Shown here: positions 1-49,867 of the stretch, in pieces
How the letters are laid out: every line of letters starts with the position of its first letter
Position numbering within the stretch: position 1 is the first letter of the stretch
Origin: Escherichia coli
Lineage (GTDB): Bacteria > Pseudomonadota > Gammaproteobacteria > Enterobacterales > Enterobacteriaceae
Length of the DNA: 64,000 bases
Strand: one strand, 5' to 3'
NCBI RefSeq assembly: GCF_003334315.1
Contig: NZ_QOWR01000011.1
Notes under the pieces: generated by a model
Told to the model about the DNA's origin: nothing
Seen by the model: only the letters and a program-made list of their open reading frames with translations
Databases searched by the model: none
Program-made: the position numbers and the translations under genes

Positions 1-1549
<1,549 letters not shown>

Positions 1550-3457: not shown

Positions 3458-3504
3458 ATCAAACACCCTTAACTTACCTTTGAGCGCCAATTTAAGCGGG
3501 GTAA

Positions 3505-3520
3505 GTGAAGGGAGTGTGAA
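3505..3520 (-). promoter_or_regulatory. cre tag (CreB binding site TTCACnnnnnnTTCAC) upstream of cbrBC
   Basis: Minus-strand reading gives TTCAC-ACTCCC-TTCAC, a perfect direct repeat with 11-bp period, immediately upstream of the cbrB start. Confidence 0.6.
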
Positions 3521-3523
3521 GAA

Positions 3524-4189
3524 CTATGCCGTAATATCCCAACCACGCGCTTTCCACAGTTCCGGTAACTGCGAAAGATGGGTAAAGGTGGTGACTTTCG
3601 GGTGAACGATCGGCTTATTGTGCGGGTCGGCGCAGAAGTAGAACACTTCCATACCTGCGTCGATACCAGATTGCGCACCGGCAACTGAGTCATCAACCAG
3701 AATGCAGTTTTCTACATTTACATTCATCGCTTTTGCCGCATGGAACATTAACGCCGGGTCTGGCTTCCAGCGCTGAATATCGTAGCCGCTGAACAGTTTA
3801 TCCGGGAAGTAGTGCAACATATTCAGCTTGCCCATAGAATGCTGCATTTTGTTATTTGGGCCGTTAGATACCACACACATTGGCGCAGTGATCGCTGACA
3901 GGAGCGCTCCAGCCCCTTCGATGGCTTCCAGTTCTGAATCGAACAGCCGAGCGACTTCTGCACGGTAAACGTGTTCAGCTTCTGTTTTCGCTAACGTAAC
4001 ACCATGTTCAAGGGAAACAATATCGATAATTTCGTACAGTTTTACACCTTTGAAACGTTTGAATACCTCTTCAGGATCGAGCGTAATACCAAATTCCTGA
4101 AACATCGTTACATATGCGCGAGAGCAAATGACTTCACTGTCGACCAGCGTACCGTCGCAGTCGAAAAATACCGCTTCTATCCGGGACAT
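3524..4189 (-). CDS. yieH: HAD-superfamily sugar-phosphate phosphatase
   Basis: 221-aa ORF; N-terminal HAD motif I (AVFFDCDGTLVDS) with catalytic Asp pair. Confidence 0.85.
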   Translation of the reverse strand: MSRIEAVFFDCDGTLVDSEVICSRAYVTMFQEFGITLDPEEVFKRFKGVKLYEIIDIVSLEHGVTLAKTEAEHVYRAEVARLFDSELEAIEGAGALLSAITAPMCVVSNGPNNKMQHSMGKLNMLHYFPDKLFSGYDIQRWKPDPALMFHAAKAMNVNVENCILVDDSVAGAQSGIDAGMEVFYFCADPHNKPIVHPKVTTFTHLSQLPELWKARGWDITA

Positions 4190-4353
4190 GCCTTTCCTTT
4201 TTAATCAGTTTAACGTTTTCGTAGAGCCGATTTGCGCAACGCAATCGTTGCCGTATAAGTAAATCCAATAAAAAAGTCTCTCACAAACGCGCCTATTGTC
4301 GCATTTTGGTATACGATAGCGACGGATTTTCCCTCCTTGTTCGGAAATAGATA

Positions 4354-5691
4354 ATGAGTCAACAACACACAACCCAGGCTTCTGGCCAGGGGATGCTGGA
4401 ACGCGTGTTTAAACTGCGCGAACATGGCACGACGGCACGGACCGAAGTGATCGCTGGTTTTACCACCTTCCTGACGATGGTTTACATCGTTTTTGTTAAC
4501 CCGCAAATTCTTGGCGTTGCTGGCATGGATACCAGCGCCGTCTTCGTCACTACCTGTCTGATTGCTGCATTCGGCAGTATTATGATGGGACTGTTTGCTA
4601 ACCTGCCAGTTGCACTGGCACCCGCTATGGGCCTGAATGCGTTCTTCGCTTTTGTCGTTGTGCAGGCGATGGGCTTGCCGTGGCAGGTCGGGATGGGCGC
4701 AATCTTCTGGGGCGCGATAGGTCTGCTGTTACTGACGATTTTCCGCGTTCGCTACTGGATGATTGCCAACATTCCGGTGAGTCTGCGTGTGGGCATCACC
4801 AGCGGTATCGGTCTGTTCATTGGTATGATGGGACTGAAGAATGCAGGTGTGATTGTCGCTAACCCGGAAACGCTGGTCAGCATCGGTAATCTGACTTCTC
4901 ACAGCGTGCTGCTGGGGATCCTCGGCTTCTTCATCATCGCCATTCTGGCCTCGCGCAACATTCACGCGGCGGTGCTGGTTTCCATCGTGGTGACAACGCT
5001 GCTGGGCTGGATGCTGGGTGATGTCCACTATAATGGCATCGTTTCTGCGCCGCCGAGCGTAATGACTGTCGTGGGTCATGTAGATTTAGCCGGTTCGTTT
5101 AACCTCGGCCTGGCAGGGGTGATTTTCTCTTTCATGCTGGTCAACCTGTTTGACTCCTCCGGTACGCTGATTGGCGTGACCGATAAAGCAGGTCTGGCGG
5201 ATGAGAAGGGTAAATTCCCGCGCATGAAGCAGGCGCTATATGTCGACAGTATCTCTTCTGTTACCGGTTCGTTTATCGGTACTTCTTCTGTTACGGCGTA
5301 TATCGAGTCTTCTTCCGGCGTTTCTGTTGGTGGTCGTACCGGTCTGACGGCAGTCGTTGTTGGTCTGCTGTTCCTGCTGGTTATCTTTCTGTCGCCGCTG
5401 GCGGGGATGGTGCCAGGCTACGCTGCAGCTGGTGCGCTGATTTACGTTGGCGTGCTGATGACTTCCAGTCTGGCACGCGTGAACTGGCAGGATCTTACTG
5501 AATCTGTTCCGGCGTTTATTACCGCCGTGATGATGCCGTTCAGCTTTTCGATTACCGAAGGTATTGCGCTGGGCTTTATCTCCTACTGCGTAATGAAAAT
5601 CGGTACCGGACGTCTGCGTGATCTAAGCCCGTGCGTAATCATCGTTGCGCTGCTGTTTATCCTGAAGATTGTGTTTATCGACGCTCACTAA
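4354..5691 (+). CDS. adeP: adenine permease (NCS2/AzgA family)
   Basis: 445-aa polytopic membrane ORF; about 70 percent identical to the adeQ product encoded at 57174..58508 in this same window. Confidence 0.9.
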   Translation: MSQQHTTQASGQGMLERVFKLREHGTTARTEVIAGFTTFLTMVYIVFVNPQILGVAGMDTSAVFVTTCLIAAFGSIMMGLFANLPVALAPAMGLNAFFAFVVVQAMGLPWQVGMGAIFWGAIGLLLLTIFRVRYWMIANIPVSLRVGITSGIGLFIGMMGLKNAGVIVANPETLVSIGNLTSHSVLLGILGFFIIAILASRNIHAAVLVSIVVTTLLGWMLGDVHYNGIVSAPPSVMTVVGHVDLAGSFNLGLAGVIFSFMLVNLFDSSGTLIGVTDKAGLADEKGKFPRMKQALYVDSISSVTGSFIGTSSVTAYIESSSGVSVGGRTGLTAVVVGLLFLLVIFLSPLAGMVPGYAAAGALIYVGVLMTSSLARVNWQDLTESVPAFITAVMMPFSFSITEGIALGFISYCVMKIGTGRLRDLSPCVIIVALLFILKIVFIDAH

Positions 5692-17233: not shown

Positions 17234-18637
17234 GTGTCACTTTCGCTTTGGCAGCAGTGTCTTGCCCGATTGCAGGATGAGTTACCAGCCACAGAATTCA
17301 GTATGTGGATACGCCCATTGCAGGCGGAACTGAGCGATAACACGCTGGCCCTGTACGCGCCAAACCGTTTTGTCCTCGATTGGGTACGGGACAAGTACCT
17401 TAATAATATCAATGGACTGCTAACCAGTTTCTGCGGAGCGGATGCCCCACAGCTGCGTTTTGAAGTCGGCACCAAACCGGTGACGCAAACGCCACAAGCG
17501 GCAGTGACGAGCAACGTCGCGGCCCCTGCACAGGTGGCGCAAACGCAGCCGCAACGTGCTGCGCCTTCTACGCGCTCAGGTTGGGATAACGTCCCGGCCC
17601 CGGCAGAACCGACCTATCGTTCTAACGTAAACGTCAAACACACGTTTGATAACTTCGTTGAAGGTAAATCTAACCAACTGGCGCGCGCGGCGGCTCGCCA
17701 GGTGGCGGATAACCCTGGCGGTGCCTATAACCCGTTGTTCCTTTATGGCGGCACGGGTCTGGGTAAAACTCACCTGCTGCATGCGGTGGGTAACGGCATT
17801 ATGGCGCGCAAGCCGAATGCCAAAGTGGTTTATATGCACTCCGAGCGCTTTGTTCAGGACATGGTTAAAGCCCTGCAAAACAACGCGATCGAAGAGTTTA
17901 AACGCTACTACCGTTCCGTAGATGCACTGCTGATCGACGATATTCAGTTTTTTGCTAATAAAGAACGATCTCAGGAAGAGTTTTTCCACACCTTCAACGC
18001 CCTGCTGGAAGGTAATCAACAGATCATTCTCACCTCGGATCGCTATCCGAAAGAGATCAACGGCGTTGAGGATCGTTTGAAATCCCGCTTCGGTTGGGGA
18101 CTGACTGTGGCGATCGAACCGCCAGAGCTGGAAACCCGTGTGGCGATCCTGATGAAAAAGGCCGACGAAAACGACATTCGTTTGCCGGGCGAAGTGGCGT
18201 TCTTTATCGCCAAGCGTCTACGATCTAACGTACGTGAGCTGGAAGGGGCGCTGAACCGCGTCATTGCCAATGCCAACTTTACCGGACGGGCGATCACCAT
18301 CGACTTCGTGCGTGAGGCGCTGCGCGACTTGCTGGCATTGCAGGAAAAACTGGTCACCATCGACAATATTCAGAAGACGGTGGCGGAGTACTACAAGATC
18401 AAAGTCGCGGATCTCCTTTCCAAGCGTCGATCCCGCTCGGTGGCGCGTCCGCGCCAGATGGCGATGGCGCTGGCGAAAGAGCTGACTAACCACAGTCTGC
18501 CGGAGATTGGCGATGCGTTTGGTGGCCGTGACCACACGACGGTGCTTCATGCCTGCCGTAAGATCGAGCAGTTGCGTGAAGAGAGCCACGATATCAAAGA
18601 AGATTTTTCAAATTTAATCAGAACATTGTCATCGTAA
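17234..18637 (+). CDS. dnaA: chromosomal replication initiator protein DnaA
   Basis: ORF track 17222..18637 trimmed to GTG at 17234 ([14 protein letters not shown]...); AAA+ Walker [11 protein letters not shown]; C-terminal DNA-binding domain. Confidence 0.97.
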
Positions 18638-23279: not shown

Positions 23280-23378
23280 GCCTGATGCGCTACGCTTATC
23301 AGGCCTACGAAAATCTTGCAATGTATTGAATTTTCATGATTTTGTAGGCCGGATAAGGCGTTCACGCCGCATCCGGCA
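23280..23378. repeat. pair of REP (repetitive extragenic palindromic) elements forming a BIME-like unit downstream of gyrB
   Basis: GCCTGATGCGCTACGCTTATCAGGCCTAC and GTAGGCCGGATAAGGCGTTCACGCCGCATCCGGCA are canonical REP palindromes. Confidence 0.7.
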
Positions 23379-33446: not shown

Positions 33447-33540
33447 AGCCGATGAGGACGCGCCTGATGGGTGTTCTGGCTACCTGACCTGTCCATTGTG
33501 GAAGGTCTTACATTCTCGCTGATTTCAGGAGCTATTGATT
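33447..33540 (+). promoter_or_regulatory. ibpA 5' UTR (about 95 nt; candidate ROSE-like RNA thermometer)
   Basis: Long structured leader between the sigma-32 promoter and the ibpA RBS; thermometer function is established knowledge, the fold was not computed. Confidence 0.45.
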
Positions 33541-33954
33541 ATGCGTAACTTTGATTTATCCCCGCTTTACCGTTCTGCTATTGGATTTGACCGTTTGTTT
33601 AACCACTTAGAAAACAACCAGAGCCAGAGTAATGGCGGCTACCCTCCGTATAACGTTGAACTGGTAGACGAAAACCATTACCGCATTGCTATCGCTGTGG
33701 CTGGTTTTGCTGAGAGCGAACTGGAAATTACCGCCCAGGATAATCTGCTGGTGGTGAAAGGTGCTCACGCCGACGAACAAAAAGAGCGCACCTATCTGTA
33801 CCAGGGCATCGCTGAACGCAACTTTGAACGCAAATTCCAGTTAGCTGAGAACATTCATGTTCGTGGGGCTAACCTGGTAAATGGTTTGCTGTATATCGAT
33901 CTCGAACGCGTGATTCCGGAAGCGAAAAAACCGCGCCGTATCGAAATCAACTAA
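33541..33954 (+). CDS. ibpA: small heat shock protein IbpA (alpha-crystallin family)
   Basis: 137-aa ORF starting [21 protein letters not shown]; alpha-crystallin domain. Confidence 0.95.
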
Positions 33955-45856: not shown

Positions 45857-47041
45857 TTAAACGGGCTGCCCCTGATGCGACATCCGCGTCGCCAGCGGCA
45901 GCCAGCACAGCACGATCAACAATCCCATTAAGGTCATCAACAACCCCAGGCTGCCCTGACCGGTTTGCGGCAACATCGCAGAGAGCGACGCCAGCACGCC
46001 GGAACCAATGTTTTGCAGACCGCCGACCAGCGCGCCAGCCGTGCCCGCCAGGAAGGGGAACGGCTCCATCGCGCCGCTGGTCGCCAGCGGAAACAGCATC
46101 CCGGCACCGAAAAAGAACAGCGCGGCGGGAACGAGCAGCGTCCAGACATTCATCACGCCAAACCAGTCGGGGATCCACATCAGCAAGCCAGCCAGCAGGC
46201 AGCAGATAACCGACTGCCACATTAACGTGGAGAAGCGTTTATTGGGACGTCCGGCAAACCATGCGCCAAAAAACGCTGCCGGAATCGGCAGAATAAACAA
46301 AATACTGACCGTCATACTGCTCAGCCCTAACACCGCGCCCATCAGCACGCCGGAGCAGGCTTCAAAGGCGGCAATCCCGGCCAGACCGCCAATCAGCATC
46401 AGCAAATAACAGTTAAAACCGCTGTTACCGAAAAGCGTTTTATAACTGGTAAGCAGGCGCGTGCGCGGTGCATCGACCGGACGCGTTTCCGGCATCCAGC
46501 GGGCCATACTGAAGGTCACACCAGCACAAAGAACCAACAAAAAGAGATAACAGGCGCGCCAGTTCCACATCGTATCCAGCAGACCGCCGATTAGCGGTGC
46601 GAGCAACGGACTGACGAGAATCCCCATGTTTAACAGGCTGTTAGCATGGCGCAACTGTGTCCGTTCATATAAATCTCGCGGTAAAGTACGCGCCATTACG
46701 CCGCCAACGCCGGTGCCCATCCCCTGCATCGCGCTGGCGGCAATCAACACCGTCAAACTGGAGGTCGTGACCGCGACCAGCGTTGCCAGCATAAAAATGG
46801 ACATTCCGACGAGGATCACCGGTCGGCGGCCCACGCGGTCGGAAATCGGGCCATAAAACAGCTGTGAGACACCGTAAGTCAGCAGATAAGCGCCCATTAC
46901 GCTCTGCACCGCCCCTTCACGGACGTTGAGATCGCGCGCCATATCGGCAATAGCTGGAATATAAATGGTTTGCGCCATCTGACCGACGGCCACGAGTAAT
47001 ACCAACATCAATAACAAATTGACGTTTCTTTGCCTTTTCAT
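45857..47041 (-). CDS. emrD: MFS multidrug efflux transporter EmrD
   Basis: ORF track trimmed to MKRQRNVNLLLMLVLLVAVGQMAQ (394 aa). Confidence 0.9.
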   Translation of the reverse strand: MKRQRNVNLLLMLVLLVAVGQMAQTIYIPAIADMARDLNVREGAVQSVMGAYLLTYGVSQLFYGPISDRVGRRPVILVGMSIFMLATLVAVTTSSLTVLIAASAMQGMGTGVGGVMARTLPRDLYERTQLRHANSLLNMGILVSPLLAPLIGGLLDTMWNWRACYLFLLVLCAGVTFSMARWMPETRPVDAPRTRLLTSYKTLFGNSGFNCYLLMLIGGLAGIAAFEACSGVLMGAVLGLSSMTVSILFILPIPAAFFGAWFAGRPNKRFSTLMWQSVICCLLAGLLMWIPDWFGVMNVWTLLVPAALFFFGAGMLFPLATSGAMEPFPFLAGTAGALVGGLQNIGSGVLASLSAMLPQTGQGSLGLLMTLMGLLIVLCWLPLATRMSHQGQPV

Positions 47042-47214
47042 TATCACGGATGCTTTTATAAAAATAATTAGAATAAGTCACTACGCATTCCCATAAATGC
47101 GGGAGAGGAATCTATCACATTGATGAATGTTAGCCAGATATACGCCAGGAATGGGGAATTGTTTAGCGGCAGAATATGTAAACAAAAGCGGCAATAAATG
47201 TTGCCGGGAGAGAT

Positions 47215-47255
47215 GGTAGGGCGGATAAGATGCGTCAGCATCGCATCCGACACCA
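47215..47255. repeat. REP-like palindromic element between emrD and tisB
   Basis: GGCGGATAAGATGCGTCAGCATCGCATCCGACACC resembles the REP consensus. Confidence 0.5.
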
Positions 47256-47266
47256 ACCCGCACGCT

Positions 47267-47298
47267 AAATATAAAAGGGGAGCGGTTTCCCGCTCCCC
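47267..47298 (-). terminator. rho-independent terminator of the tisAB transcript
   Basis: GGGGAGCGG-tttc-CCGCTCCCC stem; on the minus strand it is followed by a U-tract (plus-strand AAATATAAAA). Confidence 0.7.
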
Positions 47299-47320
47299 TT
47301 TGGTGCGACTTGAATCTGAA

Positions 47321-47410
47321 TTACTTCAGGTATTTCAGAACAGCATCAAGCAGTTGCAGTGCTGCAACAATGAGTTTGAGGATAAGAATGGCGATATCCA
47401 CCAGGTTCAT
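47321..47410 (-). CDS. tisB: type I toxin TisB (29-aa membrane peptide MNLVDIAILILKLIVAALQLLDAVLKYLK)
   Basis: Hand-translated 30-codon ORF below track cut-off, with AGGAG RBS; exact TisB peptide. Confidence 0.9.
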   Translation of the reverse strand: MNLVDIAILILKLIVAALQLLDAVLKYLK

Positions 47411-47512
47411 ACGCGTCTCCTGTGGTTCAGGAGCACTGCCAGCTGACGTACCTTTCCGCTGCCTGTTGCCAGCTGTTGTGCACGCGGTATCTCAAGGAGA
47501 AACGTTGTGCTT

Positions 47513-47533
47513 GTTGACATAACACAGTGTGCT
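47513..47533 (-). promoter_or_regulatory. IstR-1 target site within the tisAB 5' UTR
   Basis: 21-nt segment GTTGACATAACACAGTGTGCT is a direct repeat (20/21) of 47771..47791; because the two copies are transcribed from opposite strands the RNAs are complementary. Confidence 0.6.
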
Positions 47534-47646
47534 CACGCGGGGTTAAGGCGCTGACGGCACCACCCGTTTCAGCCAGGACTTAGTGCGCCGGGTAACGATG
47601 CGGCCCCCGCATAACACATTGCGTACAGTGATATTATAGAAGTTTA

Positions 47647-47662
47647 CTGTATAAATAAACAG
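47647..47662. promoter_or_regulatory. LexA box (SOS box) controlling the tisAB promoter
   Basis: taCTGTataaataaACAGta matches CTGT-N8-ACAG with AT-rich spacer; overlaps a minus-strand TATAAT -10 element. Confidence 0.75.
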
Positions 47663-47770
47663 TAATATTTGGACAAAACGCAAACTGTGATCGATACTCA
47701 ACTATGCACTAAATACGTCAAAATTCGTGCCGAAATTGCGCGTTCTGCGCGGAACACGTATACTTTCAGT

Positions 47771-47846
47771 GTTGACATAATACAGTGTGCTTTGCGGTTA
47801 CCAGCCGCAGGCGACTGACGAAACCTCGCTCCGGCGGGGTTTTTTG
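47771..47846 (+). ncRNA. istR: IstR-1 antitoxin small RNA (about 75 nt); the longer IstR-2 probably starts about 65 nt upstream
   Basis: TATACT -10 element just upstream; the 5' end carries the 21-nt repeat complementary to the tisAB leader; ends at a GC-rich hairpin plus GGGGTTTTTT. Confidence 0.55.
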
Positions 47847-47974
47847 TTATCTGCAATTCAGTACAAAACGTGATCAACCCCTCAATTTTCCCTTGCTGAA
47901 AAATTTTCCATTGTCTCCCCTGTAAAGCTGTGCTTGTATAAATATTGTTAAACACAAAACCAACAAGGTCCCCA

Positions 47975-48073
47975 ATGACTACTTCCATGCTCAACGCAAA
48001 ACTACTACCAACTGCGCCATCCGCCGCAGTGGTCGTCGTGCGTGTGGTGGTGGTCGTCGGCAATGCGCCGTAG
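47975..48073 (+). CDS. ivbL: ilvB operon leader peptide (32 aa, MTTSMLNAKLLPTAPSAAVVVVRVVVVVGNAP)
   Basis: Hand-translated short ORF rich in consecutive Val and Leu codons, upstream of ilvB. Confidence 0.85.
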   Translation: MTTSMLNAKLLPTAPSAAVVVVRVVVVVGNAP

Positions 48074-48096
48074 GGACTGGAACAACACACGATTCC

Positions 48097-48134
48097 AAAA
48101 CCCCGCCGGCGCAAACCGGGCGGGGTTTTTCGTT
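48097..48134 (+). terminator. ilvB attenuator terminator
   Basis: CCCCGCC-ggcgcaaacc-GGGCGGGG stem followed by TTTTTCGTTT between ivbL and ilvB. Confidence 0.75.
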
Positions 48135-48178
48135 TAAGCACCTCCCGGAAAGTCGGCCCAGAAGAAAAGGACTGGAGC

Positions 48179-49867
48179 ATGGCAAGTTCGGGCACAACAT
48201 CGACGCGTAAGCGCTTTACCGGCGCAGAATTTATCGTTCATTTCCTGGAACAGCAGGGCATTAAGATTGTGACAGGCATTCCGGGCGGTTCTATCCTGCC
48301 TGTTTACGATGCCTTAAGCCAAAGCACGCAAATCCGCCATATTCTGGCCCGTCATGAACAGGGCGCGGGCTTTATCGCTCAGGGAATGGCGCGCACCGAC
48401 GGTAAACCGGCGGTCTGTATGGCCTGTAGCGGACCGGGTGCGACTAACCTGGTGACCGCCATTGCCGATGCGCGGCTGGACTCCATCCCGCTGATTTGCA
48501 TCACTGGTCAGGTTCCCGCCTCGATGATCGGCACCGACGCCTTCCAGGAAGTGGACACCTACGGCATCTCTATCCCCATCACCAAACACAACTATCTGGT
48601 CAGACATATCGAAGAACTCCCGCAGGTCATGAGCGATGCCTTCCGCATTGCGCAATCAGGCCGCCCAGGCCCGGTGTGGATAGACATTCCTAAGGATGTG
48701 CAAACGGCAGTTTTTGAGATTGAAACACAGCCCGCTATGGCAGAAAAAGCCGCCGCCCCCGCCTTTAGCGAAGAAAGCATTCGTGACGCAGCGGCGATGA
48801 TTAACGCTGCCAAACGCCCGGTGCTTTATCTGGGCGGCGGTGTGATCAATGCGCCCGCACGGGTGCGTGAACTGGCGGAGAAAGCGCAACTGCCTACCAC
48901 CATGACTTTAATGGCGCTGGGCATGTTGCCAAAAGCGCATCCGTTGTCGCTGGGTATGCTGGGGATGCACGGCGTGCGCAGCACCAACTATATTTTGCAG
49001 GAGGCGGATTTGTTGATAGTGCTCGGTGCGCGTTTTGATGACCGGGCGATTGGCAAAACCGAGCAGTTCTGTCCGAATGCCAAAATCATTCATGTCGATA
49101 TCGACCGTGCAGAGCTGGGTAAAATCAAGCAGCCGCACGTGGCGATTCAGGCGGATGTTGATGACGTGCTGGCGCAGTTGATCCCGCTGGTGGAAGCGCA
49201 ACCGCGTGCAGAGTGGCACCAGTTGGTAGCGGATTTGCAGCGTGAGTTTCCGTGTCCAATCCCGAAAGCGTGCGATCCGTTAAGCCATTACGGCCTGATC
49301 AACGCCGTTGCCGCCTGTGTCGATGACAATGCAATTATCACCACCGACGTTGGTCAGCATCAGATGTGGACCGCGCAAGCTTATCCGCTCAATCGCCCAC
49401 GCCAGTGGCTGACCTCCGGTGGGCTGGGCACGATGGGTTTTGGCCTGCCTGCGGCGATTGGCGCTGCGCTGGCGAACCCGGATCGCAAAGTGTTGTGTTT
49501 CTCCGGCGACGGCAGCCTGATGATGAATATTCAGGAGATGGCGACCGCCAGTGAAAATCAGCTGGATGTCAAAATCATTCTGATGAACAACGAAGCGCTG
49601 GGGCTGGTGCATCAGCAACAGAGTCTGTTCTACGAGCAAGGCGTTTTTGCCGCCACCTATCCGGGCAAAATCAACTTTATGCAGATTGCCGCCGGATTCG
49701 GCCTCGAAACCTGTGATTTGAATAACGAAGCCGATCCGCAGGCTTCATTGCAGGAAATCATCAATCGCCCTGGCCCGGCGCTGATCCATGTGCGCATTGA
49801 TGCCGAAGAAAAAGTTTACCCGATGGTGCCGCCAGGTGCGGCGAATACTGAAATGGTGGGGGAATAA
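48179..49867 (+). CDS. ilvB: acetolactate synthase I large subunit (TPP-dependent)
   Basis: 562-aa ORF; TPP-binding motif (GDGS...N) in the C-terminal domain. Confidence 0.95.
   Translation: MASSGTTSTRKRFTGAEFIVHFLEQQGIKIVTGIPGGSILPVYDALSQSTQIRHILARHEQGAGFIAQGMARTDGKPAVCMACSGPGATNLVTAIADARLDSIPLICITGQVPASMIGTDAFQEVDTYGISIPITKHNYLVRHIEELPQVMSDAFRIAQSGRPGPVWIDIPKDVQTAVFEIETQPAMAEKAAAPAFSEESIRDAAAMINAAKRPVLYLGGGVINAPARVRELAEKAQLPTTMTLMALGMLPKAHPLSLGMLGMHGVRSTNYILQEADLLIVLGARFDDRAIGKTEQFCPNAKIIHVDIDRAELGKIKQPHVAIQADVDDVLAQLIPLVEAQPRAEWHQLVADLQREFPCPIPKACDPLSHYGLINAVAACVDDNAIITTDVGQHQMWTAQAYPLNRPRQWLTSGGLGTMGFGLPAAIGAALANPDRKVLCFSGDGSLMMNIQEMATASENQLDVKIILMNNEALGLVHQQQSLFYEQGVFAATYPGKINFMQIAAGFGLETCDLNNEADPQASLQEIINRPGPALIHVRIDAEEKVYPMVPPGAANTEMVGE

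Follow-up and report, generated by a model that had tools for sequence, protein, structure and literature searches.

The closest described system is the tisB/istR-1 locus of Escherichia coli MG1655 (b4618/b4616), for which PMC4147584 cites the original accounts of Vogel et al. 2004 and Darfeuille et al. 2007. The locus, its repeat, its LexA box and the ribosome standby mechanism are already known, having been described in 2004-2008 and refined up to 2020. Toxicity and membrane depolarisation by TisB, repression by the antisense RNA IstR-1 and the persistence phenotype are documented (PMC2826370, PMC4147584, PMC5668327), as is binding of 30S subunits and ribosomal protein S1 at the standby site independently of tRNA (PMC6690012). 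The hok/sok system of plasmid R1 is alike in having a small membrane toxin, an antisense RNA antitoxin, a duplex cut by RNase III and an mRNA that needs processing. However, Sok is encoded opposite its target, as a true cis-antisense RNA, and blocks the translationally coupled mok frame, whereas the genes of tisB/istR-1 do not overlap and their complementarity stems from a direct repeat with a spacing of 258 bp. The AgrB system shares no sequence homology with tisB/istR-1, and its mode of action differs: AgrB refolds the mRNA to sequester the Shine-Dalgarno sequence, whereas IstR-1 competes with standby ribosomes (PMC5668327).

The locus described here lies in a 64-kb stretch of E. coli DNA (the window, to which coordinates refer unless another sequence is named). 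With a probability of roughly 97% we identify it as the chromosomal tisB/istR-1 type I toxin-antitoxin locus of E. coli K-12, the identity that an earlier sequence-only reading had proposed. The identification is based on identity to MG1655, the RefSeq annotation, a match to the istR family of Rfam and the literature (PMC4147584, PMC6690012, PMC7708055, PMC2826370, PMC2577331). Positions 46463-49463 (3,001 bp) are the exact reverse complement of MG1655 NC_000913.3 3851500-3854500, with 0 mismatches, and in the matching region the RefSeq annotation of MG1655 names tisB, IstR-1 and IstR-2. As this is the reference locus itself, the finding is already known. The reading frame, the small RNAs, the LexA box, the promoters and the terminators are all the same as in MG1655; the one discrepancy concerns the annotated 5' end of IstR-1, which is 2 nt off the coordinate in the sequence-only reading. 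Our own observations concern sequence features, pairing, conservation with co-variation, and consistency of coordinates.

The istR gene is divergent from tisB, without overlap, in the intergenic region between emrD and ilvB, with emrD as the neighbour on the left and the ivbL leader and ilvB on the right. The region 47200-47900 is matched in 5,221 of 5,426 complete E. coli genomes and covered for at least 80% in 4,151. Rfam RF01400 (istR) matches end to end at 47716-47845 (+) with 150.1 bits against a gathering score of 45, and is the only family above threshold in this neighbourhood. Candidate matches to P6, STnc310 and naRNA4 near the locus were rejected, as their scores are below gathering and they represent a GC-rich hairpin just 3' of ivbL and a REP element. 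This REP element (47220-47252, the weak naRNA4 match) lies between emrD and the tisAB terminator and accounts for additional short BLAST matches at other sites of E. coli genomes. The same interval holds ysdE, a RefSeq-annotated small protein gene (24 aa) at 47123-47197 (+). Further matches above gathering in the window are AsdA (antisense RNA of dnaA mRNA), a ROSE_2 RNA thermometer and ES036/CssrF, the coordinates listed for this group being 17744-17824 (-), 33475-33547 (+) and 23301-23343 (-).

The toxin reading frame occupies 47321-47410 on the minus strand, the strand given in the sequence-only reading, and encodes a hydrophobic protein of 29 aa (MNLVDIAILILKLIVAALQLLDAVLKYLK). It equals the RefSeq-annotated tisB in MG1655 and in a 100%-identical E. 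coli genome. Residue 2 is N in the window (the K-12 variant), and S or G in O157:H7, other sampled E. coli lineages and nearly all other species; TisB with S2 is reported for 85% of E. coli (PMC11264685). The tisAB -10 element TATAAT is found at 47633-47638 (-) (also PMC11264685 Table 1), and the transcription start at 47626 follows 7 nt downstream of it. Numbering from this start yields C50, C51, G54, C55, U56, G57, C74, A75, G76 and C77 in the tisAB RNA, the bases that were mutated in PMC7708055. Because these ten published base identities are reproduced, we fix +1 at 47626. Primer extension and 3'-RACE gave a length of 359 nt for the tisAB RNA (PMC2577331), and an RNA of that length from 47626 would end at 47268, just beyond an intrinsic terminator hairpin (47274-47301, minus strand) with a 12-bp stem followed by a T-rich tail. 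The primary transcript is accordingly drawn at 47268-47626 (-).

On the same numbering, combined with the literature, the +42 processing site that forms the 5' end of the translatable mRNA falls at 47585 (-). The 5' stem-loop and pseudoknot of this active mRNA, the proposed anchor for S1 and 30S, lie at 47550-47577 (-) (+50..+77; PMC7708055); the stem-loop (+50..+64) and pseudoknot stem 2 (+53..57 with +73..77) were defined by mutagenesis (PMC7708055). The Shine-Dalgarno sequence of tisB, AGGAGA, is found at 47416-47421 (-) (+206..+211; PMC11264685 Table 1), and the tisB AUG is at +217. In terms of coordinates, the three isoforms (+1, +42 and +106) agree with the published numbering, the 359-nt length and the coordinates of the RefSeq ncRNAs. 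Two further antisense stretches are reported for the tisAB RNA, one of 20 nt directed at uxaA (GCATCGTTACCCGGCGCACT) and one of 16 nt directed at dinD (CAACTGCTTGATGCTG) (PMC2577331). In the window the former is found at 47581-47600 (-), across the +42 site, and the latter at 47339-47354 (-), inside tisB.

The divergent tisAB and istR-2 promoters have a LexA box in common (TACTGTATAAATAAACAGTA, 47645-47664, with the core CTG-N10-CAG at 47647-47662). It agrees with TACTG(TA)5CAGTA at 18 of 20 positions, is unique in the window and has 0 occurrences expected by chance. The box is upstream of both the tisAB -10, from which 6 bp separate it, and the istR-2 -35, from which 5 bp separate it. Motif scoring therefore upholds the earlier claim of a LexA box at 47647-47662 that overlaps the tisAB promoter, with the precision that the -35/spacer region is covered and the -10 is not. 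The CTG-N10-CAG core is kept in 23 of 23 species among the loci listed. Published evidence for LexA control comprises a 1,000-fold induction of tisAB by ciprofloxacin (PMC2826370), a Reg-Seq footprint at base-pair resolution with LexA pull-down at tisBp (bioRxiv 10.1101/2025.05.13.653802) and LexA ChIP-chip evidence as cited in the latter. The description of the locus as a known SOS-induced persistence module agrees with this literature on the LexA-controlled tisB/istR-1.

Two variants of the box were seen in other strains. O157:H7 F1273 carries the left half-site TGCTG in place of TACTG. In the seawater isolate E. coli B20127 (NZ_CP142939.1) the ISL3-family element ISKox3 (approximately 1.3 kb, 3459-4783 in the numbering of that isolate's locus) is inserted inside the LexA box, at a site that corresponds to window positions 47651-47658, with an 8-bp target duplication (ATAAATAA). 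The insertion halves the SOS operator and parts the tisAB -10 from the upstream promoter region and from istR.

On the other side of the box, the istR-2 promoter covers 47670-47698 (+), with the -35 TGGACA at 47670-47675, a 17-bp spacer and the -10 GATACT at 47693-47698 (PMC11264685 Table 1). The LexA-controlled IstR-2, mapped from RefSeq MG1655, has 140 nt (47706-47845, plus strand) and includes the whole of IstR-1. The constitutive istR-1 promoter lies within 47736-47764 (+), with the -35 TTGCGC at 47736-47741 and the -10 TATACT at 47759-47764 (PMC11264685 Table 1); this -10 is kept across species among the loci listed. The antitoxin RNA IstR-1 runs from G47771 to 47845 (+), which gives 75 nt. 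Its start at 47771, as the sequence-only reading had it, is at odds with the RefSeq annotation of MG1655, which maps to 47773-47845 (73 nt, start T47773). The evidence favours 47771 within this ambiguity of 2 nt: the position is exactly 7 nt downstream of the -10, the published size is approximately 75 nt (PMC2515195), the 21-nt complementarity to the target needs a start at or before 47771, and the island of cross-species conservation starts exactly there, after the variable positions 47766-47770. In MG1655 (NC_000913.3, minus strand), 47771 is equivalent to 3853192 and 47773 to 3853190. With a start at 47773 the duplex would shrink to 19-20 bp. The predicted fold of IstR-1 consists of a 12-nt unpaired 5' tail (in both the MFE and the centroid structure), a stem-loop and a terminator hairpin with a U-run; its MFE of -32.5 kcal/mol corresponds to z = -4.05, and 0 of 200 shuffles fold as well.

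One might ask if the SOS-induced longer IstR-2, rather than IstR-1, is the functional antitoxin, for it includes the entire antisense segment as well as T47770 (which completes the 22-nt repeat) and has its LexA box in common with tisAB. Yet its predicted fold draws G47771 and the upstream neighbours into a 5' helix, so that the free tail is shorter; moreover, IstR-2 is reported to be uninvolved in TisB control, and deletion of IstR-1 to raise the number of persisters (PMC2826370, PMC11264685). We consider this role for IstR-2 highly improbable and retain IstR-1 as the antitoxin.

The complementarity between IstR-1 and the tisAB RNA resides in a 21-mer (GTTGACATAATACAGTGTGCT) at 47771-47791, of which a second copy with 20 of 21 identical positions is present at 47513-47533. 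The direct repeat can be extended to 22 nt (47512-47533 and 47770-47791; 95% identity, 258 bp apart), and in this form (AGCACACTGTGTTATGTCAACA) it has been termed 'the 22-nt istR repeat' (PMC2577331). Allowing for up to three mismatches, these are the only two copies on both strands of the 64-kb window. Pairing exists because one sequence of 21-22 nt, present twice in direct orientation, is transcribed from opposite strands: the antisense segment of IstR-1 (47771-47792, plus strand) pairs with 47534-47513 of the tisAB RNA. The repeat, the folds and the literature all mark 47513-47534 (-) as the IstR-1 target and single-stranded ribosome standby site. It falls inside the 359-nt tisAB RNA, at +93..+114. 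The only difference between both copies at the DNA level is a T in istR against a C in the leader, which becomes a U·G wobble in RNA since IstR is read from the plus strand and tisAB from the minus strand. The adjacent position (47792/47534) is likewise U·G. Duplex prediction gives 22 contiguous pairs including two G·U (21/21, or 22/22 with the second wobble) at -34.8 kcal/mol. The literature speaks of 'extensive, perfect base-pairing' (PMC6690012) and of '21 nt of complementarity' (PMC4147584). Both the direct repeat and the complementary RNAs claimed by the sequence-only reading are therefore borne out, and the repeat lies within the transcribed leader.

Given +1 at 47626, approximately 100 nt separate the target from the ribosome binding site of tisB further downstream, and +106, the RNase III product known from the literature, maps to 47521, within the duplex; both agree with PMC6690012. 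A hok/sok-like cis-antisense arrangement is not what is found: IstR (47706-47845) and the tisAB RNA (47268-47626) do not overlap, and their complementarity consists of the 22-nt repeat only. A further match between 47531-47544 and 47828-47841 was set aside as probably a coincidence of G-rich stem arms.

Folding predicts the tisB Shine-Dalgarno sequence to be base-paired in all three isoforms, with P(unpaired) of 0.01-0.06. In the predicted fold of the +1 RNA, +3..+25 pair with +84..+105, by which half of the target is covered. Thermodynamic folds predict a P(unpaired) of the target that rises from 0.39 in the +1 RNA to 0.48 in the +42 RNA; as this gain is only modest, the structural switch rests on published probing. 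A partial third copy of the repeat core (CATAACACATTG, 11/12) is present at 47610-47621, which in the primary tisAB RNA is +6..+17. Since the core (CACAGTGTG) is near-palindromic, the +1 fold allows pairing between this copy and the standby region; among the loci listed, other species conserve the copy poorly.

For transcription, processing, standby loading, RNase III cleavage, toxicity and persistence we rely on the literature, from which the following sequence of events is proposed. LexA bound to 47645-47664 would repress both divergent promoters, that of tisAB (leftward) and that of istR-2 (rightward), and its removal upon DNA damage would release the 359-nt tisAB RNA from 47626. This primary RNA would be untranslatable, as the ribosome binding site of tisB is sequestered and the standby region is covered by the first 41 nt. 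Processing at +42 (47585) would then expose the single-stranded standby site (+93..+114) beside the 5' pseudoknot (+50..+77), where a 30S subunit may load by means of S1 before sliding approximately 100 nt to the sequestered ribosome binding site of tisB. The resulting TisB (29 aa) would depolarise the inner membrane and lead to persistence. Constitutive IstR-1 from 47771 would counteract this by pairing its unpaired 5' tail with the standby site into a duplex of 21-22 bp, which would block 30S loading and, after cleavage by RNase III, leave an inert +106 RNA. Nothing contradicts the published mechanism at this locus.

To compare the locus between species, tis/istR loci were located in genome contigs with a pattern that represents the IstR body rather than the repeat, followed by an nhmmer filter. 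Sampling is limited to species that keep the IstR hairpin and terminator. Of at least 120 matches, many were GC-rich sequences with no relation to the locus and at least 23 are enterobacterial tis/istR loci; at least 22 full-length loci and one truncated locus were recovered. The genera compared are Salmonella, Citrobacter, Leclercia, Enterobacter, Lelliottia, Trabulsiella, Superficieibacter, Phytobacter, Kosakonia, Pluralibacter and Siccibacter. The TisB reading frame is present in 22 of the 22 full loci listed, with 29 aa in 21 cases and 31 aa in Kosakonia cowanii, and across these 22 its core (LILKLIVA.LQLL.AVLK) is almost unchanged. The most conserved part of the leader is a stretch of 27 nt, 47551-47577 (-), which is invariant in 23 of the 23 sequences listed and thereby surpasses the TisB coding region in conservation. 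Its position is that of the proposed S1-binding pseudoknot (+50..+77) of PMC7708055, a paper that makes no mention of the conservation of this block.

Different patterns are seen for tisA, a reading frame of 37 aa at 47407-47520 (-) that is reported to be untranslated (PMC2826370). The E. coli sequence by itself invites an indirect mode of action, in which IstR-1 would block translation of tisA and a tisA-tisB coupling of the hok/mok/sok kind, not ribosome standby, would transmit the effect to the toxin: the tisA ATG (47518-47520) lies inside the IstR-1 target and hence within the duplex, the tisA stop overlaps the tisB ATG, and over 99% of E. coli retain the ORF (PMC11264685). However, the tisA start is ACG in 17 of the 22 other species listed, which do keep TisB, the target and IstR, and 47474-47510 in the body of tisA is gapped or poorly conserved in most other genera among the loci listed. 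From both observations we conclude that tisA is not a conserved gene. Together with the reported lack of tisA translation and the tRNA-independent 30S/S1 binding at the standby site (PMC6690012), they make such coupling very unlikely, and direct competition of IstR-1 with standby ribosomes is the reading we keep.

The ATG of tisA exists only where position 7 of the repeat is A, which among the loci listed is the case in Escherichia, Salmonella and some Citrobacter. Because the co-changing A/G at this position makes or destroys the start codon, it is conceivable, if rather doubtful, that the E. coli clade has gained an AUG in the standby site plus the extra leader sequence 47474-47510, and that this AUG could tune 30S capture or give low translation of tisA. 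If true, tisA would not be a meaningless ORF but would modulate standby efficiency in a lineage-specific way.

What is new here is that the duplex is kept and co-changes across the 22 other enterobacterial species listed, in each of which 19-22 of 22 pairs can form. Among the loci listed, position 7 of the repeat is A in both copies in 5 genomes (the window included) and G in both copies in 16, and position 12 has changed from A to G in both copies in four Kosakonia/Enterobacter Bisph1 genomes. Changes on one side only, at positions 1, 11, 20 and 22, preserve pairing via G·U in these loci; the T at IstR position 11, to which the wobble is due, is confined to E. coli in the sampled genomes, and is found in O157:H7 and two other lineages as well. 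Pairing is not perfect in all of the loci listed: 7 species have an A·C mismatch at position 5 and 2 Citrobacter have one at position 7, and in Pluralibacter position 13 is a G·G mismatch. Reduced to 11 distinct haplotypes among the loci listed, 98.3% of cells are paired and both sides have changed in 2 pairs; when the partner is shifted by 1-3 columns in the same haplotypes, pairing falls to 22-49%.

That the 21-22 nt repeat might have arisen by chance or be a functionless remnant of a local duplication, with IstR regulating something else, finds some footing in the flanks, where the similarity of the copies is not significant past the 22-nt core and nothing significant points to a longer ancestral duplication (Smith-Waterman score 17, reached by 23 of 500 shuffles), but it is already effectively refuted by the 0 matches to the 21-mer in 100 dinucleotide-preserving shuffles of the 64-kb window, by both copies being conservation islands with variable flanks in more than 10 genera among the loci listed, by the joint change at two positions and the wobbles that keep pairing in most one-sided changes in these loci, and by concurring published genetics and biochemistry (PMC4147584, PMC6690012).

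Summarizing, the locus is of value as a positive control: a full type I module was rebuilt from raw sequence with coordinates that are essentially right. For the family, the comparison among the loci listed shows that tisA is not conserved and that the S1-binding pseudoknot region is invariant in more than 10 genera. Together with compensatory change that keeps the antisense pairing, it lends modest support to the published models.
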